Positions 1,897 through 62,598 of a stretch of 64,000 bases of DNA are shown piece by piece; position 1 is the first letter of the stretch; each line of letters begins with the position of its first letter. The stretch lies in IMG/VR virus record IMGVR_UViG_2541047959_000009. One strand, given 5' to 3'. The DNA is from a virus. Its lineage: Duplodnaviria; Heunggongvirae; Uroviricota; Caudoviricetes. The notes below the pieces were generated by a model that was not told the origin of the DNA, made no database searches, and was given only the letters and a program-made list of their open reading frames with translations. The position numbers and the translations under genes are program-made.

Positions 1897-4800
1897 GCGT
1901 CGTATCCCCCCTGATCGCTGTAGTTACTCCTGGCTTTTGCCTTCAGCCTGCGTTCACGTTCATCAAGCTGGCGTGCCACCTCCCGCGCAATATCCTGCGC
2001 ACTTTGTCCTGGCTGCGTCTGAATGATGATCTGCGTCGGTGCCTCAATCCGTTGAACGAGTGGCACAGTGGCTGCGCGACTCACAATTGCTTCTCCACCT
2101 TTCGCGGGAAGTGCCAAGGGGTGCAACGGTGGAAGCTCTGCTGGCGCGGCAGCAACGCCCATCATTCCGGCAACAACGGCAGCCAGTGCAGCTGTATTTC
2201 TCCGGCTGGTCACATTTGCCGGGCCGTTAACAATTTCCGGCCCGTTTTCACCGACGATGCCAAACTGCCCGCGCGGGATATACCCGCCGCTGTCATACAT
2301 CCCCGCAAAGCCATATCCCCATGATGGAAAACCACCCGATGGCATCATCACTTTACCGTCTGCATTCACCGTCGCAGGTTGCTGACGCGTCACGCTTTCC
2401 GGCAGTTTTGCCTTTGCGGCCTCTTTACTGACAATGCCGAGCTTCTCCAGCAACCAGGAAACGCCGGATTTCAGGGAGTCCAGCGGATGCATGACCATAT
2501 TCAGCCCTTCCGCCAGTGCCTCCCCGAATCGCCGCCCCATTGCCGCTGCGCTCTGCAGTTCGGCAGAGGTCGACTTAACGGGCGTCAGTAGATCAGTAAA
2601 CCAGCCCCACAGCGCCTGCACTTTGTCGCCAATCCACTGGAACACGGGCTTAAGCGGTTCGAACGCTGCACTGATGGGACCTGCCGCCGCTTTGAATCCT
2701 TCCACCACGCCACCGAGAAATGCGGTGATAGGTTGCCAGTATTTCCAGACAACCAGCGCCACGCCCGCCAGTGCAGTAACCACAAGACCTATCGGACTGA
2801 GCAGAGCACCTAACAGACCAGATATGGCATACAGGGCAACGCGCAGCATCGCCAGTGGACCAGATGCCAGTACTCGCAGCACCGTGCCTGCGGCGGCCAG
2901 TCCACCGCGCAGTACCGCCAGAGGATTCATAAACATCACAGCAACAGCACGTAAACCGGATAATCCAGACCGCAAAAGTGCAACCGGCGCACCTGCTACA
3001 GTTTTCAGGACATTTCCCGTCAGTGATGCCGTGCGGCGCAAAGACGACAACGGCGCAGTAAGTAAACCTGCGGCGTTGCCCGATGAAGCAAGCCCGCGTC
3101 GCAGCAGTGCCAGTGGTGCGCCAGCCAGCCAGGACAACGCGCTGCTGGTTCGAGTTACTGCTGCCGTAACGGAAGATAACGTTTTGATACCCAACACAGA
3201 GAATCCCAGACGGATCACTGCCAGCGGCCCCAGCACTGCAGCCAGCGCCACCGCTAAGGTGCCGAGGCCGACGGTAACCGCAGCCACAACAGCCGATGCT
3301 TTCATCAGTGTGCCTGTCAGTTCCGGGTTAGCTTCCACCCAGCGACGCAACGCCCCCGTGACGCTTTTCACCGTGTACAGAATATCCATCAGCGGCTGGC
3401 GCAGCGTTTCGCCCAGGCTGCTGAAGGTGTTCTGCGCTCCGGTTTTGACCAGCAACCACTGCGCAGAAAGTGAATCCTTGTTAATGTCGGATTCTTTCTG
3501 CATGGAGCCAAGCGCATCATTGCCCGCTGTCAGTTTTAACTGACGCTGCAGTTCCGGCAGGTTGTTTGCCAGTTTCGCCGCGTCATCGCCAAACTCTTTA
3601 CCAAACAACATAGTCATGGCAGACAGGCGCTTGTCCTGCGGCAGCGCGTTTACCTTCTCCAGCACGCGCTGGATGGTTCCCATCGCATCCTTCGTCATCT
3701 GCTTTTCAATCACTTCAGGATTGAGTTTCAGCAGATTCATCCCTTCAAAGAAACTCTTGCTTTGCATGGTGGCAATGGACAATTCACGCACCATCGCGTT
3801 TGCTGCACTGGCTGCAACCTCTGGCGCAGCGCCCAGTGTCAGGAAGGTGGAACCCAGCGCCGCCGCTTTACGATAATCCAGACGGTCAGCCACACCGCCC
3901 AGACGTTGCATCACATCAATGATGTCTGCCCCTTTCGACATGGCGTTATCATCCAGATAGTTCAGCGCATCACCGAGCTGTTCAATATTGCGGGTGGGGA
4001 TTTTGTAGAGCTGGGCGATTTTCCCCAGACTTTCTGACAGTTCATCCGCTGGCAGCTCAAAGGCTGTTGCCGCCTTTGCTGCCGTACTGGCGAAGGCCAG
4101 CAGGTCACGTTTCTGATCTTCCCAGCTGTCGTCAGGGTTTGCGACGTTCATGCGCGCACCACCTTCAACCAGTGCAGCGAAGTCCACCGCACCGTTTTCC
4201 ATCGGCAACTGTTCGCTGGCAGCCTTGATGGCATCCTGCATTTCATAAAAACGTGCAGTGCGGTTGCCATTATCGTCACGCAGACCACTGACCTGCTTTG
4301 CCACACCTTTCATGGCATCTTCCATGCTGGTATAGCTTTTTACTGCCGCCATCACTGGCGCACCCATTGCCAGCCCTGCAGCCGTGGTGGTGGCTCCGGC
4401 ACCTGCAATACGATCACGCACCTCCAGCGAACGGGCATAACTGGCACGCGCTGCATTCATCCTGCGCTGAGCTTCCCCCAGTCGCTTCAGCCGCGCCTCC
4501 TGTTTCGAAAGTTCCTGGTTATAACGTGATGTTTCACGGGCTAAACGGGCAGTTGCTCCCGCATCGTCTTTCGCAGAAATTCCCGCCCGGTACAGTTCAG
4601 CACGCACAAGCGCCGTCTGCCGCTGCAGCTTTTTCTGGCGTTCTTCCAGGCGCTGAACAGCCAGCCGTTGACGGCCCAGAGCAACAACCTGACGTTGCGA
4701 AGGCGGCCCCATCGCTCCCAGTTCCTGACTGAGCAAATTTGCACGCTGGCGGGCATAGTTCAGCCTGTCGCCTAATTTCTGATTTTCTGCCTGCAGCTTT

Positions 4801-4970
4801 CGGAAGCTGTCCAGACTGCTCCCGGCCTGATCAAGCTGCTTTATTGCATCGCGGGATTTTTTGACAGCAGCAGCCAGTTCTCTTGAACTGGCCTGCGCAG
4901 ATCGAAATGGGCGGGTGAGCTTGTCAACCGCATTAAGAATGACCTGCAGACGCAGGTTGTTATCACTCAT
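1893..4970 (-). CDS. T: tail tape measure protein
   Basis: 1025-aa ORF, coiled-coil rich N-terminus and Gly/Ala-rich hydrophobic repeats, downstream of E/E'. Confidence 0.9.
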   Translation of the reverse strand: MSDNNLRLQVILNAVDKLTRPFRSAQASSRELAAAVKKSRDAIKQLDQAGSSLDSFRKLQAENQKLGDRLNYARQRANLLSQELGAMGPPSQRQVVALGRQRLAVQRLEERQKKLQRQTALVRAELYRAGISAKDDAGATARLARETSRYNQELSKQEARLKRLGEAQRRMNAARASYARSLEVRDRIAGAGATTTAAGLAMGAPVMAAVKSYTSMEDAMKGVAKQVSGLRDDNGNRTARFYEMQDAIKAASEQLPMENGAVDFAALVEGGARMNVANPDDSWEDQKRDLLAFASTAAKAATAFELPADELSESLGKIAQLYKIPTRNIEQLGDALNYLDDNAMSKGADIIDVMQRLGGVADRLDYRKAAALGSTFLTLGAAPEVAASAANAMVRELSIATMQSKSFFEGMNLLKLNPEVIEKQMTKDAMGTIQRVLEKVNALPQDKRLSAMTMLFGKEFGDDAAKLANNLPELQRQLKLTAGNDALGSMQKESDINKDSLSAQWLLVKTGAQNTFSSLGETLRQPLMDILYTVKSVTGALRRWVEANPELTGTLMKASAVVAAVTVGLGTLAVALAAVLGPLAVIRLGFSVLGIKTLSSVTAAVTRTSSALSWLAGAPLALLRRGLASSGNAAGLLTAPLSSLRRTASLTGNVLKTVAGAPVALLRSGLSGLRAVAVMFMNPLAVLRGGLAAAGTVLRVLASGPLAMLRVALYAISGLLGALLSPIGLVVTALAGVALVVWKYWQPITAFLGGVVEGFKAAAGPISAAFEPLKPVFQWIGDKVQALWGWFTDLLTPVKSTSAELQSAAAMGRRFGEALAEGLNMVMHPLDSLKSGVSWLLEKLGIVSKEAAKAKLPESVTRQQPATVNADGKVMMPSGGFPSWGYGFAGMYDSGGYIPRGQFGIVGENGPEIVNGPANVTSRRNTAALAAVVAGMMGVAAAPAELPPLHPLALPAKGGEAIVSRAATVPLVQRIEAPTQIIIQTQPGQSAQDIAREVARQLDERERRLKAKARSNYSDQGGYDA

Positions 4971-5399
4971 CGTTGGCCCCGCTTCTCTGAATCGCTTTAT
5001 ACCGCCATTCCAGCACTTCGGTCAGCGGCATAACGTCAGTAACGGATGGCGGCCAGTGAAAAATGGTGGCGATATCTGCCACCAGATCGTCAACCGTCAG
5101 GCTGTCGGTAAACCGGCAAGCACCGACTTCTTCAATAAAAAAGTGACAACCTCAACCGACATGGCAGTGAGATCTGCCGGGTCCATCTCTGCAATTTCCT
5201 GTGCAGTCAGTGCCGGACTGGAGATGCGGGAGATCACGGTCATCATCGCGTTTACATCCATATCCATAATGGCCTGCAGGCGTGTACCGCGCAGCGCACC
5301 GGACTGCGGTTTACGCAGCACAATTTCGGTGATTTCTGTTTTACCGCGCTTGATGGGGGTATCCAGTTGAATGGTCTTTTCAGTCTGCTTATCGCTCAT
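4963..5399 (-). CDS. E+E': tail assembly chaperone E+E' (-1 programmed frameshift product)
   Basis: Slippery heptamer T_TTT_TTA at 5136-5142 (minus strand); -1 frame stays open to a TGA at 4963-4965, overlapping the T start. Confidence 0.6.
5097..5399 (-). CDS. E: tail assembly chaperone E
   Basis: 100-aa ORF ending ...TFLLKKSVLAGLPTA, directly upstream of tape measure gene. Confidence 0.8.
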   Translation of the reverse strand: MSDKQTEKTIQLDTPIKRGKTEITEIVLRKPQSGALRGTRLQAIMDMDVNAMMTVISRISSPALTAQEIAEMDPADLTAMSVEVVTFLLKKSVLAGLPTA

Positions 5400-5453
5400 T
5401 TTGCTGTCCTGTCAATTGGGTTCTGGCGCGGTATCCCGCGCCGTTCAGATATA

Positions 5454-5969
5454 TCAGAGGCCGAGGGCGTTGCGGTGCGCTTCCATCAGGTCCACACCGT
5501 CCACAATTTCCACCATGTTGATAAGGTCCACTTCATAGAGCACCTCACCATTGATGGTCAGCTTCGCGTAGCTGTTGGTACTGGTCACTTTGGTGGTGTT
5601 GCTTTCGCCCGTCTTCCACTCGCCGGAATCCACTTCTTTGTGACGTCCACGCACGACAAGCTCCACGGCCTGCACTTCCCCGGTATCGTCACGCTGAATA
5701 GAGCCGGTAAAGCGCAGCTGGATGCCATCCACCGTGGCTTTACCCATCTGTTTAAACAGCAGCAATTCAGTACCACCAATGGAAAATTCTGTGTCCAGCG
5801 CACTGTCATCAAGCCCCAGATCCACATCCACCGCACCCGGCATTCCGCCGCCGCGATACTTCTCATATTTGCGGGTAAATTTCGGCAGCGTCAGCGACTC
5901 AACGATCCCCTGCCAGTTGTTCCCGTCGTTAAACAGGTTCAGGTGTTTTAATTTGCGTGGTAAAGCCAT
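5454..5969 (-). CDS. FII: tail tube protein FII
   Basis: 171-aa ORF, P2 FII-like, synteny. Confidence 0.85.
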   Translation of the reverse strand: MALPRKLKHLNLFNDGNNWQGIVESLTLPKFTRKYEKYRGGGMPGAVDVDLGLDDSALDTEFSIGGTELLLFKQMGKATVDGIQLRFTGSIQRDDTGEVQAVELVVRGRHKEVDSGEWKTGESNTTKVTSTNSYAKLTINGEVLYEVDLINMVEIVDGVDLMEAHRNALGL

Positions 5970-5978
5970 GTTGTCCCC

Positions 5979-7151
5979 TTACGCGCTGACCTGGCTGGCG
6001 AAATTCACCAGGTACTGATCGGTGATGCGCTGACGCAGCATCAGGTTTTCAAGTGGCGGCACTGGCGTGTAGTCGTAGTCGATGGTGAGTTTTCCGGCTT
6101 TCAGCGTGTCTTTGTCGTTCACCGACTCATCCAGCCAGCAATCACCACCAATGAGATAGCCCTGACTGACCAGGCTGCGCATTTTGGCGCGGATACCTTC
6201 GATAATGTCGCGGGCCAGCGACGGGTTAAGCGGTTTATCCACCGCCCACATGTGTGCTTCTGCCATCGTGTCCATCAGCACCTGCGCCGTGCGGGTGTAG
6301 TTTTCGAAGGCAAAGAGCGGGTCATCACTCAGGCAGCGGGAACCCCAGAAGCGGAAACCGTCTTTACGCACAAGCGTGGTGACGTCGTTCTGGTTCAGCA
6401 GACCTGCATCGGTTGCCGGGTCCTGCAGATCCCAGAACACATCTGCAGAAATTCCGGTGACACCGTTCACGCCCACGTTGGACAGGCTTTTGTGCCATCC
6501 GGTCTGCTCGTCAATTTTGGCGCGCAGACCAAGCGCACGGGCGGTGGCATATGCCGTTGCTTCGGCATTCAGCACCGTGTCCCAGCCAGTAAAGTCAGGC
6601 CAGATCAGCATCCCTTCGCGCTGGCTGAAGTTTTCACGGTAAGTGATCGCCTCCTGTATCGTCTTGCAGCCATACGCTGACAGGTAAGCAAACCCACGCA
6701 GGCTTTGCGCCACGCTCAGCAACTCAGTAGCTACCGCCTTGGTGTCGTGACCAGGTACACCCAGAATGCGCGGTTTAACGCCGAGCTGTGACTGGGCAGA
6801 TAACAGGGCTTTCATACCTGTTTTTTTACCTTCAGCAGTCACTGCGCCGATGATATTGGTCGTGGTTTCGTCTTCCGTTTCACCCTGCGGCACACGCACA
6901 ACAACGGTCACGGGTTTTGCCTGGTCAGCGATGGCATCCAGCGAACGGGCCAGCGTGCCGGACTCACCCGCTTTACCGCTGGCAGTCAGCACATCAGTGA
7001 TCAGTACGGGTTTATTAAGAGGAAACATTTTTGCATCGGCATCATCGCCCGTGCAGACCATGCCCACGATGGCGGTGCTCACCGTGGTAATGGATCGGGT
7101 GCCTTCGTTGACTTCAACAACGCGCACCCCGTGGTGGTAATCCTGAGCCAT
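5979..7151 (-). CDS. FI: tail sheath protein FI
   Basis: 390-aa ORF, P2 FI-like, synteny. Confidence 0.9.
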
Positions 7152-11983: not shown

Positions 11984-12001
11984 TGTATCACGGCTGTCAC
12001 A
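11984..12001. promoter_or_regulatory. Ogr-type activator box (TGT-N12-ACA) of late promoter for V-W-J-I-H-G
   Basis: TGTATCACGGCTGTCACA centred ~55 bp upstream of the V start codon. Confidence 0.5.
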
Positions 12002-12075
12002 AACAACTGGCAAAAAACGACTACTATCTATAAATTATTGAGAGTTATCTCATTAACAAAAAAGAAGCTTGGTAA

Positions 12076-13776
12076 ATGGAACACTTAAGACAACTGCAAA
12101 ATAAAACTTCCCTGTTAGAAAAGTACGGGACTAGTAACGCACATCTTTTATGGTCATTAGGTCTTTACTTAGATGAATCCGATTTTGATAAGCTAGCATC
12201 TGATGGACTTACTGATGGTGGAAACGATAAGAAAATAGACTTCATTACCGTAATTAATTCAACGTTATTTATTGCTCAGGGTTACTACTGCAATCAGCAA
12301 GCACTTAAAATAGTTGCGCCTGCAAATAAAGCTTCTGACTTAAACACTGCTTTAGCGTGGATTATGGCAGGCTCAGGAGAGTCTCCAAATGCAAAATTAA
12401 GAGCAAAAATTTCTGAGGTTAGAAAATTAATTGATGATAACGAAATTGAAGCTGTTGAATTATTATATATCCATAATTGTGCCGAATCTGAGCAGGTTAA
12501 AACTGAGCTTGAAACTTGTCGTGACTATCTAGCAGGTAGATTTGCAGACAAAGAAATTGAGGTAACTTACAGAGAACTTGGTGTTAATAGTCTTGAAAAA
12601 TTGTATATTGCGCTATCACAACAAATTGTTGTGACTGACAATATAAAGTTCAATGGCGAACTTATAAATTCTGTACAAGGTGATGGCTGGACTTCACATG
12701 TTGGCTTTGCAAACGGCACTTGGCTAAATTATTTATACAAAAATTATGGAGCAGAATTATTTTCTGCTAATTATAGGGGGTTCATGGGATTAAATAAGAG
12801 AAGAAAAATAAACTCATCAATTAAGAATACCGCAGAAACATCCCCAAAAGACTTCTTTGTCTTTAACAATGGTGTATCAATCCTAACAACAAAATTCAAC
12901 AAAGAAAAAGGGTTGTTGGAAGGAGTTTCAATCATAAATGGAGCTCAAACCACTGGTTCTATTGGTTCAGTTCAAGATATACAAAAATTAGATGGCCTAA
13001 AAGTCCTTTGTAAGGTTATTGAATGTAATGATGCGGACAAAGTAAAAAAAATAGTCCAGTATAATAATACTCAGAATCATATTACAACCTGGGATCACTA
13101 CTCTAACAGCACAGAACAAAAACAGGTGGCAGAAGAATTTTCCACTCTTGGTTATACATATTCACTGAAACGCGGCTTCGAAAATACTGGTTCTTTATTT
13201 GGCATTGAGTCTGTTGCTCAACCGCTGATAGCGTTACATGGGGATTATGTTAGCGCCAATAGAGGTAAAAACTACGTTTTCGATACAAAATCAGCCTATG
13301 ACAATGCCTTTCATGATTCGAAAGCCCAGCATATTTTATGTGCTTACACTATTTCAAAAGCTATAGAAAAAGTAAAATCTCAAATCCGTGCAAAAGAGAA
13401 TAAAATTAAAGTAGATGAGGATAACTTATTATTCCTCCAAAATTTAAAGTCTCGATTCTTTTTAATATCCGTCATCGGAGAAATACTTGAAGAATTAACA
13501 GATAAACCTTTGAACAAGAAGAAAATAAAATATAAATATGATACAGCATTATCTAAAAATAACTCTCTGGATGATTTAATCGACCTTTGGACACCAGTTA
13601 TAACTGCGATATTACCACATGTTATCCGTGTTTCAGGTCAAGATTTAACCACCTACTTATCTGTAACAGACAACCCGTTATCTATCGTATCAAAGGAAGT
13701 TAAAAACATATTAACATCCTTAAAAGCGTTCCAACCGATTGAGCCATTAATTACTCTTTCAAATCACCTTGAATAA
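12076..13776 (+). CDS. hypothetical 566-aa cargo protein at the S-V variable locus (candidate anti-phage defence; family not recognised)
   Basis: Long ORF on the strand opposite the flanking late genes, AT-rich relative to backbone, own upstream region and terminator. Confidence 0.8.
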   Translation: MEHLRQLQNKTSLLEKYGTSNAHLLWSLGLYLDESDFDKLASDGLTDGGNDKKIDFITVINSTLFIAQGYYCNQQALKIVAPANKASDLNTALAWIMAGSGESPNAKLRAKISEVRKLIDDNEIEAVELLYIHNCAESEQVKTELETCRDYLAGRFADKEIEVTYRELGVNSLEKLYIALSQQIVVTDNIKFNGELINSVQGDGWTSHVGFANGTWLNYLYKNYGAELFSANYRGFMGLNKRRKINSSIKNTAETSPKDFFVFNNGVSILTTKFNKEKGLLEGVSIINGAQTTGSIGSVQDIQKLDGLKVLCKVIECNDADKVKKIVQYNNTQNHITTWDHYSNSTEQKQVAEEFSTLGYTYSLKRGFENTGSLFGIESVAQPLIALHGDYVSANRGKNYVFDTKSAYDNAFHDSKAQHILCAYTISKAIEKVKSQIRAKENKIKVDEDNLLFLQNLKSRFFLISVIGEILEELTDKPLNKKKIKYKYDTALSKNNSLDDLIDLWTPVITAILPHVIRVSGQDLTTYLSVTDNPLSIVSKEVKNILTSLKAFQPIEPLITLSNHLE

Positions 13777-13780
13777 ATAA

Positions 13781-13802
13781 CGGGTGGCCTCCTAGGCCAC
13801 CC
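13781..13802. terminator. bidirectional hairpin terminator between cargo gene and S
   Basis: Perfect 9-bp stem CGGGTGGCC/GGCCACCCG with 5-nt loop between convergent genes. Confidence 0.7.
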
Positions 13803-13831
13803 GTTCATAACTTATTTTTAATCTAAAATTT

Positions 13832-14290
13832 TTACGGCTTATTGTTATTAATTAACCATTGATAAAAAACATTCTTAACGTTGTTCTCAATATCATTGTT
13901 AATACCCAACAAACGCCGCTCTGCATACCGTACGTCCGGTCCTTTGCGACTGACGCGATCACGCAGACCGTAATGGTGAACACGGGCAATGCGCTGTACC
14001 TTACCTTCAAACTGCACGCTGGCAGAGTCGGCGCTGGCGGCAGTTTTCAGGTATTTTGTGGTGCGCAGCTTTGCAAACATCTGACGTTTGATACGGCCTT
14101 TTTTACTGCGTGCTGTTACCCGTCGCGGTTCATAGCTGCTGCCGTCAGGGTTGCGCTGCATCCTGATATTCTGCTGCTGTGTCCGGCGAAGTTCCTGCGC
14201 CAGCTGGCGCATCATGCGGCTTCTCGAGGCTGGTTCCAGATTCGCCAGCAAGGCACTCAGCCAGTCGTCCACCTTCTGCAGTTCAGCCAC
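13832..14290 (-). CDS. S: tail completion protein S
   Basis: 152-aa ORF, synteny. Confidence 0.8.
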   Translation of the reverse strand: MAELQKVDDWLSALLANLEPASRSRMMRQLAQELRRTQQQNIRMQRNPDGSSYEPRRVTARSKKGRIKRQMFAKLRTTKYLKTAASADSASVQFEGKVQRIARVHHYGLRDRVSRKGPDVRYAERRLLGINNDIENNVKNVFYQWLINNNKP

Positions 14291-31081: not shown

Positions 31082-32101
31082 ATGACTGTCAGAAAACAGC
31101 CAAACGGTAAATGGTTGTGCGAGTGCTATCCCAATGGACGCAATGGCAAGCGCGTGCGTAAGCAATTTGCTACGAAAGGCGAAGCCATTGCTTTTGAAAG
31201 CTTCACAATGGAAGAAGTGAACAAAAAACCATGGCTGGGGGAAAAGGAAGATCGGCGACACCTATCAGAATTAATTGAGCAGTGGTATTCCCTGTATGGT
31301 CAAACACTCGCAGACCCCAAGCGCCTCATAGCGAAACTTAGAATTATCTGTAATGGTCTAGGCGATCCCATCGCTTCAGAACTGACAGCCGGTGACTTTA
31401 CGAAATACCGCGAAGCACGGTTAAAAGGTGAAGTACGAAATGAAGATGGCACGTTTATGTCGCCCGTTAAGCCCCGCACGGTAAACCTTGAACAGCGCAA
31501 TCTATCATCTGTTTTTGGTACACTGAAAAAGCTGGGCCACTGGTCAGCCCCCAACCCGCTTGCTGGGCTGCCAACATTTAAAATTGCTGAGAGTGAATTG
31601 GCGTTCCTGACCCCGGAAGAAATTAAACGTCTGCTGGATGCCTGCGCCGATTCTCAAAGCTCCAGCCTGCTTTTGATTGCAAAAATATGCCTGGCCACCG
31701 GCGCACGCTGGAGCGAAGCCGAAAACCTGCAGAGTCATCAGGTATCAAAATACCGTATCACTTATACCAAGACCAAAGGCAAGAAAAACCGAACTGTGCC
31801 TATTTCTAAGGATTTATATGAAGAACTGCCTAAGAATAGGGGGAAGTTATTCACCCCATGCAGAAAAGCCTTTGAGCGTGCAGTAAAGCGAGCCGGTTTA
31901 GAACTACCAGAAGGCCAATGTACCCATGTTCTGCGCCATACATTTGCCAGTCATTTTATGATGAACGGTGGAAATATACTGGTACTGCGCGATATTCTTG
32001 GACATGCCGATATAAAAATGACGATGATTTACGCTCATTTTTCCCCAGATCATCTTGAAGATGCAGTAACTAAAAACCCATTAGCAACCTTGATGGATTA
32101 A
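31082..32101 (+). CDS. int: tyrosine integrase
   Basis: 339-aa ORF; C-terminal catalytic region HVLRHTFAS...MIYAH (R, H-x-x-R, Y). Confidence 0.9.
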   Translation: MTVRKQPNGKWLCECYPNGRNGKRVRKQFATKGEAIAFESFTMEEVNKKPWLGEKEDRRHLSELIEQWYSLYGQTLADPKRLIAKLRIICNGLGDPIASELTAGDFTKYREARLKGEVRNEDGTFMSPVKPRTVNLEQRNLSSVFGTLKKLGHWSAPNPLAGLPTFKIAESELAFLTPEEIKRLLDACADSQSSSLLLIAKICLATGARWSEAENLQSHQVSKYRITYTKTKGKKNRTVPISKDLYEELPKNRGKLFTPCRKAFERAVKRAGLELPEGQCTHVLRHTFASHFMMNGGNILVLRDILGHADIKMTMIYAHFSPDHLEDAVTKNPLATLMD

Positions 32102-32105
32102 GCAC

Positions 32106-33329
32106 ATGCGCAACATTATCGAATTAGAACAGATATCGGAAGAACTAAAAAAACATGAACTATTGCAACCCCCATTCATTGCCGAGGGAAAACTAATTTC
32201 TGACTTTTCTAAGAGAGTCGAGTGCTATTTAGAATTAATTGACTCCATTAGAAATAAATATCCTGACAACGAGATAATTAAACAAGTAAAGATTCGCACA
32301 AAATCAATAATATATTTATCTGATAAAATAATAGAAACTCTTAAGCTATTTTTAATAGGAAATGTTAAAGAAGCTTATAAAAAATTCGATTTGGCAATTA
32401 CCAAGTCATCAATGCATACTCATCTTTATAAGATGACTGTTCCTCTAACTAAATTATGCAACCCACACACCCCTTTATTTCGCGTAAGGAAAAGTGAGTG
32501 CATCCTAAAACAAAGAGAAGAATTATTTCATATACCATTTAAAAATAGACATTTAGTTAGCGCACAAAGATTTTCTGTATCCGGTCTTCCATGTTTATAT
32601 CTTGGAACATCAATATTTGTATGTTGGCAAGAAATGGGAAAACCTGACTTTGATAAACTTTACATATCTTCCTTCATATCCGATAAAGAAAATTCAAATA
32701 TAAGAATTTTAGATCTTGGGTACAATTTAACATCTGCACTTCGTACAAAACCGGGAGATCTTTGGTATTCATTCGAACAAGGTTCAGATGATGATTACGA
32801 TCTAAATAATGATAATTTCATGGATCAAATTAATGATAAAATTTCAAAGTTGATTGCATGGCCTTTAGTCCTTGCATGTAACTATACAAAAGATAATGAA
32901 AACGCAAGTTTTAATAAAGAATACATAATACCAAACCTATTAATGCAATGGATTAGTAGTGACAGAAACAAAAATATATCAGGGATATCGTATCGATCAA
33001 CAAAGATATTAAACCAAAAAGATAGCGATATTGGGATTAATGTAATTATCCCCCCAAAAATAGAAAACATAGTTGAAACCAATGATACCCACTGTCCTGT
33101 TTTAAAAAAAATATTTAGAGTTACAAACCCTGTTTCCTGGACTGTGTTTAGTACACTAGAAGCCACCCCCTATCTATACAAAAATAATTTTAATTTTTCG
33201 ACCTATAATCCCGCAAAAGGATGGATTGAAGACTTTGATGAATCCCTTGTTGAACATTATGAAAATACCACTTTTAGAAAAGTTGAACTCCTTATTCATC
33301 AAATGATGAAGTATGAATATTTAAAATAA
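32106..33329 (+). CDS. RES-domain protein (candidate NAD-targeting toxin/abortive-infection effector), 407 aa
   Basis: AT-rich ORF starting 4 nt after int stop; RES-like signature AQRFSVSGLPCLYLGTSIFVCWQE. Confidence 0.6.
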   Translation: MRNIIELEQISEELKKHELLQPPFIAEGKLISDFSKRVECYLELIDSIRNKYPDNEIIKQVKIRTKSIIYLSDKIIETLKLFLIGNVKEAYKKFDLAITKSSMHTHLYKMTVPLTKLCNPHTPLFRVRKSECILKQREELFHIPFKNRHLVSAQRFSVSGLPCLYLGTSIFVCWQEMGKPDFDKLYISSFISDKENSNIRILDLGYNLTSALRTKPGDLWYSFEQGSDDDYDLNNDNFMDQINDKISKLIAWPLVLACNYTKDNENASFNKEYIIPNLLMQWISSDRNKNISGISYRSTKILNQKDSDIGINVIIPPKIENIVETNDTHCPVLKKIFRVTNPVSWTVFSTLEATPYLYKNNFNFSTYNPAKGWIEDFDESLVEHYENTTFRKVELLIHQMMKYEYLK

Positions 33330-58648: not shown

Positions 58649-58999
58649 TCACTTCAGTCGTTCACGGGCCGTCTTCGCCTTATGACACGGCCAGCACAGG
58701 CTCTGCAGATTGCAGTCTGCATCAGTGCCGCCATGCGCTTTAGGGATGATGTGGTCAACGGTTTTCGCCTCACGCACCACACCGACATGCAGGCACAACT
58801 GACACAGGCCTTTGTCACGCTTCAGCACGCGCGCGCGGATAACATCCCACTTCGAACCGTAGCCGCGCTGGTGACGGGATTGTCCTGGCTTGTATTGTTT
58901 CCAGCCTTCGCTTTTGTGGCTTTCACAATAGCCTGACGGATCAGTGGTGGTTTGGCGGCAGCCGCGAACGCGGCAGGCTTTTGGGGTTCGTGGGGGCAT
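58649..58999 (-). CDS. HNH endonuclease (terminase-associated)
   Basis: 116-aa ORF with CxxC...H..P...GG....N...LC..CH zinc-HNH motif. Confidence 0.8.
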   Translation of the reverse strand: MPPRTPKACRVRGCRQTTTDPSGYCESHKSEGWKQYKPGQSRHQRGYGSKWDVIRARVLKRDKGLCQLCLHVGVVREAKTVDHIIPKAHGGTDADCNLQSLCWPCHKAKTARERLK

Positions 59000-59101
59000 T
59001 TAAAGTGGGATCTAACTCTAATAATTTAAAAAATTTAATTGGGTCTTGATATTAATCACATAGACTCAATGCTCTTTAGTTCTTACATAGGTGGTTGTAT
59101 T

Positions 59102-59542
59102 ATGAGTATCCCCAGTTTAGATGTTCATAAAGTTGTTAAGTGCGCAGAGCATAAAAAGGCTTTAGATGCAATATCTCTCAAACTTAAGAATAACATTATT
59201 GACTCAAGCTCTGAATACGATTTTCTTGGCGACACAATAATTTTCAATAAAGATAAAAAAAATAGGTTAACCCTCAAACTTTCAACATATGAACTAGAAC
59301 TTATTTTCAAAGAAACACTGCTAGTCATTGATGAAGCTCCTGTATTGAAGTTTGCTGCCATTGACCCAACCGATGAAAATAACAACGAGCTGATTGATTT
59401 ATTTTTATCCAAAGGTGGATTTATTTATATTAGAGAATACAAATCCGAGCCACATTATGAGTATGGCGACACTTCTCTATTTTTACATATACTTGACGCT
59501 ACTCTTAAAGAGCTTAAATCTGCAAACAAAATATCCTATTAA
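59102..59542 (+). CDS. hypothetical AT-rich moron protein
   Basis: ORF 59039-59542 trimmed to MSIPSLD Met; opposite strand to all flanking phage genes. Confidence 0.55.
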   Translation: MSIPSLDVHKVVKCAEHKKALDAISLKLKNNIIDSSSEYDFLGDTIIFNKDKKNRLTLKLSTYELELIFKETLLVIDEAPVLKFAAIDPTDENNNELIDLFLSKGGFIYIREYKSEPHYEYGDTSLFLHILDATLKELKSANKISY

Positions 59543-59648
59543 ATAAATTTTTGCTAACATAGCCCCGCGCCATGACAAGATTTTCTGTTCTAGATGCAAG
59601 GGCTATGTGTGAATATCTATAAACAAAAACCCCATCCGGTGATTTTTG

Positions 59649-59873
59649 TCATTTTTTAGCCATCTCAATTGCGGCATCAAAAAGTCGTTCAAGAATAAAA
59701 TCAGGGTACTGTAATTTTTCTTGCTCGATATGAAGCTCATAAATTTTCCCTTCCCACTCCCATTTAAAATTAAATCCAGAAGCAGAAGGTGCGAAATGTG
59801 TTTTAGCTTTAGGGTTAGCGTAACCAGCAACAGTCAACACATCAAACTTAAAATCTTGAGGTTTAATACGCAT
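59649..59873 (-). CDS. hypothetical AT-rich small protein
   Basis: ORF 59649-59900, convergent with 59102-59542. Confidence 0.45.
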   Translation of the reverse strand: MRIKPQDFKFDVLTVAGYANPKAKTHFAPSASGFNFKWEWEGKIYELHIEQEKLQYPDFILERLFDAAIEMAKK

Positions 59874-59970
59874 AATCATATCCTTTGCCAAGTTCATCAT
59901 TATTCTTCTCGATTATAAAACAATGAATAAAATCATTAAAGCATAGACGTTAAATATCCTCAAAATGTGA

Positions 59971-60408
59971 TTAGTTGGGACATTGCGTCCTGATATACTC
60001 CTGCAAGTAATTGACCTGTGAGGTTATCTTGTCGATTCCACTTCGGAGACGGTAATAATGGAGTTCAGCATCTGCTGTAAGTCTAGGGCTTTCTCCATCG
60101 CCCATGCCGCTGGCTCCGGTCGTTGACTTTGTACAGGTGGCGGCGACTTGCAGGCGCTTATGCCCAGCAGAAACATCAGCACGAAGACTTTCGATAGTCG
60201 CATTAGCATCAGCAAGCTCCTTTGTATATCTGGCATCGAGTTCAGCTACATTACGTTGACGCTTCTGCATATCAGCGATGATGGATGTGGCTTTATCGCG
60301 CTGTACTTTGTAGACGATGGCGTCATCACGGTAATTATCAACAGCCCATGACAAGCAGACGATGATGCAGATAACCAGAGCGGATATAATCACCGTTACT
60401 CTGCTCAT
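59971..60408 (-). CDS. Rz: Rz-like i-spanin
   Basis: 145-aa ORF near-identical in pattern to lambda Rz ([22 protein letters not shown]). Confidence 0.85.
60024..60209 (-). CDS. Rz1: Rz1-like o-spanin lipoprotein
   Basis: Embedded ORF in +1 frame of Rz with lipobox LLGISAC and Pro-rich region. Confidence 0.6.
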
Positions 60409-61173: not shown

Positions 61174-61290
61174 ATGAATAGCCGCAGTTTCGCCTCCGAC
61201 AGAAAATCGGAGCGTGAAATGATATGTTGATTTATTATTAATTCGAAAATTACATTCTAATTCATCAGGCATTGATGATTTTATAATAAT

Positions 61291-61313
61291 AAAGGCCGTT
61301 CGTTACGGCCTTT
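61291..61313 (-). terminator. hairpin terminator after acidic moron gene
   Basis: 8-bp stem AAAGGCCG/CGGCCTTT with 7-nt loop. Confidence 0.5.
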
Positions 61314-61324
61314 ATTATTGATAT

Positions 61325-61660
61325 TTATTTTACATCCCAAGGTAGTTCCTCAAGAGAGAAGACTAATTCATTATCAATAATTTCGTATTCTGCATAACCT
61401 TCAACCTCTCCTGAGAAGTTATTGTCAACGCATCCTTCATAATAGCTATATGGTGCTATAAAGTGAAACCCATATTCATCTATCTCTGTGATTTCAAAAT
61501 TGTAGTAATCGTAAGAATATCGAATATCATCATCAGAAATAGAACTAAGTACATAGTTATTAAATTTATCGGAATGCTTAACGATAAGTTCTGACAACGC
61601 GTCAAGATTCTCTGGAGAGATATTTCCTAACGGTAATCTGTACTCAACGGCATTAATCAT
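61325..61660 (-). CDS. hypothetical highly acidic 111-aa protein (moron at Q-S junction)
   Basis: AT-rich ORF with ~27 Asp/Glu versus ~6 Lys/Arg; between Q-like gene and holin. Confidence 0.6.
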   Translation of the reverse strand: MINAVEYRLPLGNISPENLDALSELIVKHSDKFNNYVLSSISDDDIRYSYDYYNFEITEIDEYGFHFIAPYSYYEGCVDNNFSGEVEGYAEYEIIDNELVFSLEELPWDVK

Positions 61661-61713
61661 ACAACCTCCTTTTTAACTGATATGAGGTTATATAATGTGT
61701 TTCAGTACAAGTA

Positions 61714-61739
61714 AATAAAAACCCGCTCAACAGCGGGTT
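61714..61739 (-). terminator. tR'-like terminator downstream of Q-like gene
   Basis: Stem ACCCGC/GCGGGT followed on minus strand by TTTTATTT. Confidence 0.55.
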
Positions 61740-61845
61740 CGTGAAAATTATCAACGGCAGACATACAAAGCCCATCGTTGAGAAAATCTTATCCATATTT
61801 TTTGAAAAATGCAAGCTTCATGTCACTATCTTCGGCGAAAATCAC

Positions 61846-62598
61846 TTATCTCGTCACCTTTCTCAATTGTGTTTCAGCATATGCTTCTTCCTGCCAGCAC
61901 TTTGTTACTAGTTTATCAATTACGTCTGCATATCCTTTGTACCACTGATAATCAGTCAGGTCTGGAACCAGCTTCTGGACATGACGTCGTGCCAGTGTAG
62001 TCGGTAAACGGCTAAACCGGTTTCCATTGCAACGCCCACAAGTCTTATAAACAGGCGTGCCATGAAGCCGGGTTCTTTTTTCATCCAGGACAATACCTTT
62101 ACCCTTACACCCTCTGCACGCCGTGCTGACTTCTCCCTTGCCATGACAATGCTGACACAGTTCCTTCACCCACTCTTCTTTGATAACGGATTCCCCGCTT
62201 CTGGAATGTTTCACCACTTCGCGCAATACATTATGAAATCCAGTACCAGTACAATGCTCACAGCGAGCCTTACTTGCCGCAGACCTGGAATAATCAGCAA
62301 AGGCAAAATTCACAAGGTAAGGGATGATCTGTAACCGGGTTTCTTCACTCAATTTGTTCAATGTCGGGTTATCCAGTGCCATCGCGTAATTGAGCAGGCC
62401 TTCAATCGCAAACTGAGGATCCTGAACACCAACTTTTGCCAGGAATAAGGCAAACCCAAGCGGTGCTTTCGACTGCACCATCCCCTGCGCAGCCATTACA
62501 TCCGTAATTGTTAAACCACCCGAGCCTGTCGCCGATGCGTCATCGCTCAATTTTGGAGATTTTGGGGAGTAATATTTCGGTAAGGCTTCAAGGTTCAT
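61846..62598 (-). CDS. putative late-gene antiterminator (Q-like) with DnaJ-type zinc finger
   Basis: ORF 61846-62640; four CxxCxGxG repeats; position immediately upstream of the lysis cassette. Confidence 0.5.
   Translation of the reverse strand: MNLEALPKYYSPKSPKLSDDASATGSGGLTITDVMAAQGMVQSKAPLGFALFLAKVGVQDPQFAIEGLLNYAMALDNPTLNKLSEETRLQIIPYLVNFAFADYSRSAASKARCEHCTGTGFHNVLREVVKHSRSGESVIKEEWVKELCQHCHGKGEVSTACRGCKGKGIVLDEKRTRLHGTPVYKTCGRCNGNRFSRLPTTLARRHVQKLVPDLTDYQWYKGYADVIDKLVTKCWQEEAYAETQLRKVTR

Follow-up and report, generated by a model that had tools for sequence, protein, structure and literature searches.

Two small cargo genes at the lysis/packaging junction of an Escherichia coli lambdoid prophage: a hypervariable moron slot and a modest candidate for phage defence

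Morons, as reportedly defined for phages HK97 and HK022 by Juhala and colleagues in 2000 and by Cumby and colleagues in 2012, are extra genes that lie between genes adjacent to one another in related phages, that have an atypical base composition and that are flanked by a promoter and a terminator. The bor gene of phage lambda and its homologue iss are single-gene, AT-rich morons of this type, found at the Rz/packaging junction. The Bor and Iss proteins are outer-membrane lipoproteins with a signal peptide and a lipobox.

In several temperate phages, genes that act against other phages are placed opposite to an operon of the lytic programme. In phage phi80, tai (orf63) lies on the strand opposite the Q-controlled late operon and its product is made in the lysogen, at a level that falls when Q is expressed, whilst the late-operon gene ati (orf64) encodes a 76 amino acid antidote, an arrangement that has been termed a noncontiguous operon (He et al. 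2024, PMC11364771). Late transcription and tai expression influence each other in this phage; homologues of Tai are found predominantly upstream of the packaging module and most of them are without a recognisable Ati (He et al. 2024, PMC11364771). The same opposite-strand logic has been reported for Tha/Ith in the Staphylococcus aureus phage 80alpha (PMC11087260) and for TerI/anti-TerI in the Listeria phage phi10403S (bioRxiv 10.1101/2025.02.27.640495), the latter source citing Tab from Pseudomonas alongside TerI.

A cargo cassette between the lysis and packaging genes

The window analysed here (the whole stretch of DNA, 64,000 nucleotides in length) carries a lambdoid prophage of E. coli with an HK97-type head module, the prohead protease being annotated as HK97-family. 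At the junction of its lysis and DNA-packaging genes lies an AT-rich insert of 981 bases and 32.9% GC (59000–59980), defined by its composition and by breaks in homology to sister prophages, that extends from the HNH start codon to the Rz stop codon. In a composition scan, positions 59000–60000 have 30–37% GC compared with 52–59% in the flanking phage genes. E. coli S88 is 100% identical across the cassette region. The left border is formed by an HNH endonuclease gene (58649–58999, minus strand; Pfam HNH, E 5e-14) that belongs to an HNH/TerS (P27)/TerL packaging module, the genes on this side being those for capsid, protease, portal, TerL, TerS (P27 family) and HNH. The right border is the Rz spanin gene (59971–60408, minus strand; Phage_lysis, E 8e-37), within which the Rz1 lipoprotein ORF (60024–60236) is embedded, and the genes on this side are those for Rz, lysozyme, holin and Q.

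The cassette holds two convergent small ORFs, designated ORF-A (plus strand) and ORF-B (minus strand). The original prediction, that an AT-rich pair of ORFs lies between Rz/Rz1 and HNH, is borne out in that both ORFs are real. The prediction that ORF-A runs against the phage genes is likewise correct, all annotated genes of the prophage segment other than ORF-A being on the minus strand in the S88 annotation, but ORF-A is the only gene to do so: ORF-B is co-directional with the late operon. The predicted sizes of 146 and 74 amino acids also stand, but the ends of the predicted span (59039–59900) correspond to the TTG of a 167 amino acid frame and to the upstream ATG of an 83 amino acid frame.

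Comparison with sister E. coli prophages defines the borders of the insert. TerS in these prophages is 95–99% identical to that of the window over the best alignment (it is frameshifted in one of them) and HNH is 92–94% identical. Homology breaks off precisely at the start codon of HNH (58999/59001); two of the sisters have a closely related Rz, and in these it resumes at 59981, 8 nt after the Rz stop codon. Between these points the sisters carry iss, a DUF6236 gene, an unrelated 83 amino acid ORF or no cargo, with iss, the bor homologue, being antisense like ORF-A. With such exact breaks and such varied cargo, the junction is, as had been proposed, a moron site: the slot is hypervariable and the cassette is genuine cargo.

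In common with the HK97 and HK022 morons, the cassette is an insertion between genes that are adjacent, or have other cargo between them, in relatives, it has an atypical base composition and its ORFs are flanked by promoter- and terminator-like elements. It differs from them in that its promoters, its terminators and its expression from the prophage are predictions: consensus promoter and terminator scans of the island perform at chance level in such AT-rich DNA. A repeat search of the island found no terminal repeats or target-site duplication indicating transposition, and an Rfam scan of the island gave no match.

Two further loci illustrate the content of the slot elsewhere. In an Enterobacter asburiae prophage (6521–7012 of loci L003/L004), an ORF-B homologue is convergent with two antisense genes that occupy the same slot and encode a 63 amino acid DUF2158 protein and an 80 amino acid protein. 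In IMGVR_UViG_2648501357_000002 (4001–5137 of the locus), a distantly related ORF-B (33% identity) precedes an antisense fragment of 95 amino acids that lies immediately ahead of the small terminase gene. The fragment is homologous to the N-terminal half of Tai from phi80 (36% identity, E 1e-17), showing that this is the same hotspot.

Other AT-rich regions are present in the window. A second island (61200–61900, 30–39% GC) separates the genes for the Q antiterminator and the holin and occupies what we take to be the slot in which the stx genes sit in Stx phages; it contains a 111 amino acid ORF (61325–61660, minus strand) that matches only PHROG 13663, a family of unknown function (E 9e-54). 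Outside the late region of the prophage, strongly AT-rich blocks (31–36% GC) are found at 12001–14000, 22001–24000 and 32001–33000, with ORFs that include 12076–13776 (plus strand, 566 amino acids) and 22642–24051 (minus strand, 469 amino acids). These blocks may be further horizontally acquired islands.

ORF-A and ORF-B as protein-coding genes

ORF-A (59102–59542, plus strand) encodes a 146 amino acid protein annotated in S88 as hypothetical (RefSeq WP_000026993.1). The first ATG is at 59102 and is preceded at a distance of 7 nt by the ribosome-binding site GGTGG (59090–59094); the same frame read from the TTG at 59039 gives the 167 amino acid form. The upstream region (59026–59101, plus strand), identified by alignment and from its sequence, is a block kept in five homologous loci that includes TTGATATT, with an extended –10-like TGaTATTAA at 59048–59056, and is a putative promoter. 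Just 3′ of the ORF-A stop codon there is a long hairpin (59557–59608, plus strand) with a 9-bp perfect base formed by ACATAGCCC and GGGCTATGT, and a hairpin is found directly 3′ of the stop codon in every ORF-A homologue. ORFs of at least 146 amino acids arose in 0.05% of 2000 first-order Markov simulations of the island (p about 0.0005), thus the length of ORF-A is beyond chance. Between intact homologues at 30–64% identity, where dS is unsaturated, dN/dS is 0.13–0.43, and a C-terminal KISY motif is kept in all family members except the most divergent.

ORF-B (59649–59873, minus strand) encodes a 74 amino acid protein, also annotated in S88 as hypothetical (RefSeq WP_001220676.1). An upstream in-frame ATG at 59900 would yield the 83 amino acid form, but the shorter form agrees with the RefSeq call and with the length of all full-length homologues, which have exactly 74 amino acids in Enterobacter asburiae and Pantoea latae and 72 in Citrobacter freundii. 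The ribosome-binding site AAGGA, 7 nt 5′ of the ATG, is kept in all copies. It lies within an upstream region (59874–59970, minus strand) that also has a perfect TATAAT (the reverse complement of 59917–59922), about 40 nt upstream of the ribosome-binding site, and TTTAAT 17 nt upstream of the TATAAT. The Enterobacter copy also has a TATAAT, and the region is a candidate promoter. Directly 3′ of the ORF-B stop codon is a terminator-like hairpin with a U-rich tail (59623–59650, minus strand) that also folds on the plus strand; it was not picked up by a strict terminator scan. In the Enterobacter and Pantoea copies, strong GC-rich intrinsic terminators occupy the same position. Since ORFs of at least 74 amino acids appeared in 20% of the 2000 simulations, the reality of ORF-B rests on its conservation (dN/dS 0.07 in comparison with the Enterobacter copy). 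Both ORFs, then, are protein-coding genes under purifying selection.

The ORF-A protein is soluble and acidic (pI 5.4), with no hydrophobic segment, lipobox or signal sequence (the maximum 19-residue hydropathy is 1.1 and the N-terminus reads MSIPSLDVHK). Its structure model has a pLDDT of 43 and is unusable. The ORF-B protein is soluble, with a pI of 6.7 and no hydrophobic segment or signal sequence; the AF2 model (pLDDT 68) has the topology helix, three strands, two helices. Prediction of signal peptides and transmembrane segments, suggested as a check on the cargo, thus found neither in either protein, and the lack of a hydrophobic segment or lipobox in both speaks against the serum-resistance role of Bor/Iss type that had been envisaged.

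Both families are tiny. ORF-A is represented by four clusters among 5.8 billion proteins, by six representatives among 1.84 billion in an exhaustive profile search, and by 13 IMG/VR loci and 10 metagenome loci, and ORF-B by about a dozen clusters and 12 IMG/VR loci. Neither gene was found by megablast or tblastn in 50,697 deposited phage genomes, phi80 included. Searches with both proteins and with divergent ORF-A members gave no meaningful match in Pfam, PHROGs, NCBIfam or PADLOC, and for Pfam, NCBIfam and PADLOC nothing reached an E value below 0.01; PADLOC PDC-M24A (E 0.016, across 30 residues) came closest, together with isolated Pfam matches to individual members. Profile searches against PDB sequences returned noise only, the ORF-A profile matched nothing in genome contigs, and a literature search on the two RefSeq accessions found no papers. 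In these homology searches, which had been suggested as a check, neither gene matched a toxin, antitoxin, immunity or defence model. A 143 amino acid plus-strand ORF between Q and holin in one of the homologous loci (L012) was considered as an ORF-A paralogue and proved to be unrelated.

Homologous loci and carrier strains

The homology of the cassette to other loci falls into separate blocks. The block containing ORF-A (58979/59065–59542) has 72% nucleotide identity to three loci (L002, L017 and L018) and ends at the ORF-A stop codon, whilst ORF-B and Rz together form a block (59651–60408) with 64% identity to the Enterobacter prophage locus L003. Homologues of ORF-A (30–64% identity) are present in five other backbones, all without ORF-B, whose TerL proteins are 25–63% identical to that of the window and whose packaging modules resemble those of Escherichia and Klebsiella temperate phages. 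The ORF-A homologues all have 30–35% GC and their reading frames are intact in all of these other backbones. At all loci the direction of ORF-A is opposite to that of the late operon and its position is between the lysis genes and HNH/terminase, often head-to-head with HNH, and a position adjoining the HNH gene is kept in most loci. What lies on its other side varies: ORF-A converges on another, unrelated small sense ORF (76 or 119 amino acids) in L024 and the L002/L017–L022 group, and directly adjoins the final lysis gene, without a small sense ORF in between, in L010 and the L011–L013/L025–L026 group.

Homologues of ORF-B without ORF-A are found in prophages of Enterobacter and Pantoea and on several viral contigs from IMG/VR, next to unrelated cargo or none. 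In the Enterobacter, Pantoea and other prophages, which have quite different terminases, they directly follow the spanin gene. The two genes occur together only in the S88-type phage (L014–L016, L023 and L030–L033). Judged from these comparisons, the cassette is a composite of two independently acquired single-gene modules rather than a functional pair. The original prediction of a pair is not supported, given the convergent arrangement, the start signals and hairpin that each gene has of its own, the separate homology blocks and the occurrence of each gene alone outwith the S88-type phage.

The possibility had been raised that the two genes form a toxin-immunity or toxin-antitoxin pair, with one product toxic and the other protecting the lysogen, and two small, adjacent, AT-rich genes for hypothetical proteins in a mobile element would suit such a pair. 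It is, however, not supported, because ORF-A and ORF-B co-occur only in the S88-type phage, each being alone in most lineages. The genes are convergent and not co-transcribed, and neither matches a toxin, antitoxin or immunity family. Nor are they lost together: ORF-A is lost by frameshift in strains that keep ORF-B (see below), and the reverse is seen in some Logan contigs, although these contigs look like error-prone assemblies and were left out of the evidence. We regard a toxin pair as very improbable.

A different kind of partnership is suggested by phi80. As with tai and ati, ORF-A and ORF-B lie in the slot that follows the lysis genes and precedes the packaging module; ORF-A and all its homologues, like tai, are antisense genes interrupting a Q-dependent late operon; and a small sense-direction protein of about 75 amino acids (74 for ORF-B, 76 for Ati) is encoded beside the antisense gene. 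By analogy, ORF-A would block phage development in the lysogen and ORF-B, as a late-operon gene, would neutralise ORF-A after induction. The convergence of ORF-A with another small sense ORF in the L002/L017–L022 group and L024 is in keeping with this, and the rarity of ORF-A and ORF-B together is not decisive, because most Tai homologues are also without a recognisable Ati.

Against this stand the ORF-A homologues with no intervening small sense ORF, the ORF-B homologues without ORF-A, the separate homology blocks and the retention of an intact ORF-B where ORF-A is frameshifted. There is no sequence similarity to Tai or Ati either, with hhalign probabilities of 0.1% for the ORF-A family against TaiEcA and 0.5% for the ORF-B family against AtiEcA, and Tai has 204 amino acids compared with 146 for ORF-A. 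Finally, tai and ati are divergent with overlapping 5′ ends, whereas ORF-A and ORF-B are convergent. We therefore consider both a defence gene paired with its own antidote and self-immunity to ORF-A as the function of ORF-B to be improbable here. Two independent modules, as above, is the arrangement that we prefer.

The cassette is present in 105 of 5426 complete E. coli genomes, in copies that are at least 99% identical and all chromosomal. The carriers listed include S88, UTI89, UM146, ATCC 11775 and avian pathogenic O1, O2 and O18 K1 strains, and are largely neonatal-meningitis, urinary and avian pathogenic isolates. We take the strains in which the prophage was mostly found (S88, UTI89, ATCC 11775 and so on) to be members of the recognised ST95 lineage. 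Within ORF-A there is an A8 homopolymer (59254–59261, plus strand) that is A7 in UTI89, UM146, N41 and APEC E12053. The A7 allele cuts the protein short at about 53 residues, and annotation no longer records the ORF. Among 30 genomes sampled at even spacing from 106 matches, ORF-A is intact in 17 (about 57%), frameshifted in 12 (about 40%) and cut by IS1 in one. ORF-A is thus dispensable for its carrier strains, being frameshifted in roughly 40% of them, UTI89 and UM146 included. ORF-B is intact in all six strains checked, amongst them strains in which ORF-A is frameshifted. The island is nearly invariant, with too few SNPs across strains for SNP linkage to bear on the history of the A7 frameshift.

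Other forms of damage to the prophage were also seen. In E. coli APEC E18006 (NZ_CP126942.1; 2501–3300 of locus L028), an IS1B element interrupts ORF-A at 85 nt, the remainder of the island is deleted together with the lysis and early regions of the prophage, and HNH/terminase is joined to yfdR-side DNA. A cassette variant that is 89–94% identical (IMGVR_UViG_3300029562_000227; 5001–5771 of locus L023) has a frameshifted ORF-A and an ORF-B with an in-frame stop, reflecting either joint decay or assembly error. In UM146 (1–23 of locus L053), the P27-family small terminase gene is annotated as frameshifted, so the prophage is probably defective in at least some strains.

These observations raise the question of whether the two genes are decaying passengers that once had a role in other hosts and survive as neutral remnants in a prophage that is inherited vertically and largely fixed. 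The frameshifts and IS1 truncation of ORF-A in the sampled genomes, the disruption of both genes in the L023 variant and the TerS frameshift in UM146 all fit with this, as does the near invariance of the island, which places within-lineage selection beyond measurement. On the other hand, dN/dS is well below 1 across the family, the frames are intact in all other backbones, more than half of the sampled carriers (about 57%) keep the 146 amino acid frame and ORF-B was disrupted in none of the six strains checked. On balance, decay appears rather unlikely to be the explanation.

Another possibility is that of lysogenic conversion, in which the genes would serve host physiology or virulence rather than act on phages; ORF-A might, for example, modulate a cytoplasmic pathway useful to extraintestinal pathogenic E. 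coli. The restriction of the cassette to so few complete genomes, with listed carriers that are largely pathogenic isolates, is compatible with this, and both the slot and the antisense orientation are those of iss in the sister prophages. The resemblance to bor and iss (an identical insertion site, antisense orientation in the sister prophages, a single-gene AT-rich moron) does not extend to the protein, however: ORF-A has no sequence similarity to Bor or Iss and cannot act as they do, because it has no signal peptide, lipobox or hydrophobic segment. Moreover, UTI89 and UM146, both archetypal pathogens, have a frameshifted ORF-A, and the family follows the phage rather than the pathotype, because it is also found in prophages with Klebsiella-like or other Escherichia-like packaging modules. 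We consider a contribution to virulence or host physiology unlikely.

A possible role for ORF-A in conflict between phages

It is also conceivable that the antisense transcription unit is itself the function, damping leaky late read-through into or out of HNH/terminase in the lysogen, with the protein secondary. The retention in most loci of a position adjoining the HNH gene and the hairpins in the convergent gap would be in line with this, as would the mutual effects of late transcription and tai expression in phi80 (PMC11364771). The amino acid sequence of ORF-A is, however, under purifying selection down to 30% identity and this, together with the conserved C-terminal KISY motif, indicates that the protein has a function. 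Frameshifted ORF-A alleles keep the transcription unit and so do not separate this from the other readings. A function for transcription as such seems to us most improbable.

The most likely role for ORF-A, argued by analogy, is that of a lysogen-expressed anti-phage or exclusion factor. We propose that ORF-A encodes a soluble protein of the cytoplasm and is read, in opposition to the Q-dependent late operon, from start signals of its own; with this antisense placement it would be expressed in the lysogen, and late transcription converging on it would suppress it once the prophage is induced. The protein would act in the cytoplasm against superinfecting phages, perhaps by binding a phage assembly or packaging component, as do Tai, Tab and TerI. 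A role in defence or exclusion is favoured because the antisense placement of ORF-A is kept and matches that of Tai, Tha and TerI. Like TerI, Tha and Tab, ORF-A would be a small defence gene expressed in the lysogen and placed opposite a lytic operon, which in those systems carries a self-immunity gene, and the locus, like theirs, is a fixed one with interchangeable cargo; those systems differ in their hosts, in their genome positions (early or lysogeny modules) and in having no homology to the genes described here. Counting against a defence role, bor/iss occupies an antisense position too and is no phage-defence gene. A part for ORF-A in phage–phage conflict is put forward tentatively, with a chance clearly below even.

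ORF-B would be a small protein of alpha/beta fold, read in the sense orientation directly after the spanin gene and with its own –10 box and terminator-like hairpin, and late transcription, at least, is expected to give rise to it. Its probable role is that of an independent accessory protein with a binding partner from the host or from a phage. For both genes, expression pattern and function are what we infer from arrangement and comparison.

Taken together, these results show the cassette to be ordinary moron cargo, at a prophage hotspot that was already known, and make it a modest candidate for defence. The best overall explanation, to which we would give slightly less than an even chance, is that the moron slot has received two independent modules and that ORF-A acts against superinfecting phages. 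A bolder form of this proposal is that ORF-A founds a new anti-phage family, expressed in the lysogen and disabling the assembly or packaging of incoming phages of the HNH/terminase type, with the adjoining late-operon gene as interchangeable self-immunity and the A8 tract as a slippage-prone on/off switch; this is a long shot.

If ORF-A does not act in defence, the cassette is one more pair of orphan morons and an instance of ordinary prophage mosaicism. If it is anti-phage, the prophage defences that are switched by antisense placement in a lytic operon would gain a new family, one without a recognisable domain, and the lysis/HNH–terminase junction would be a defence hotspot worth mining. 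In that event ORF-A could also affect the susceptibility of the pathogenic E. coli that carry it to therapeutic phages.
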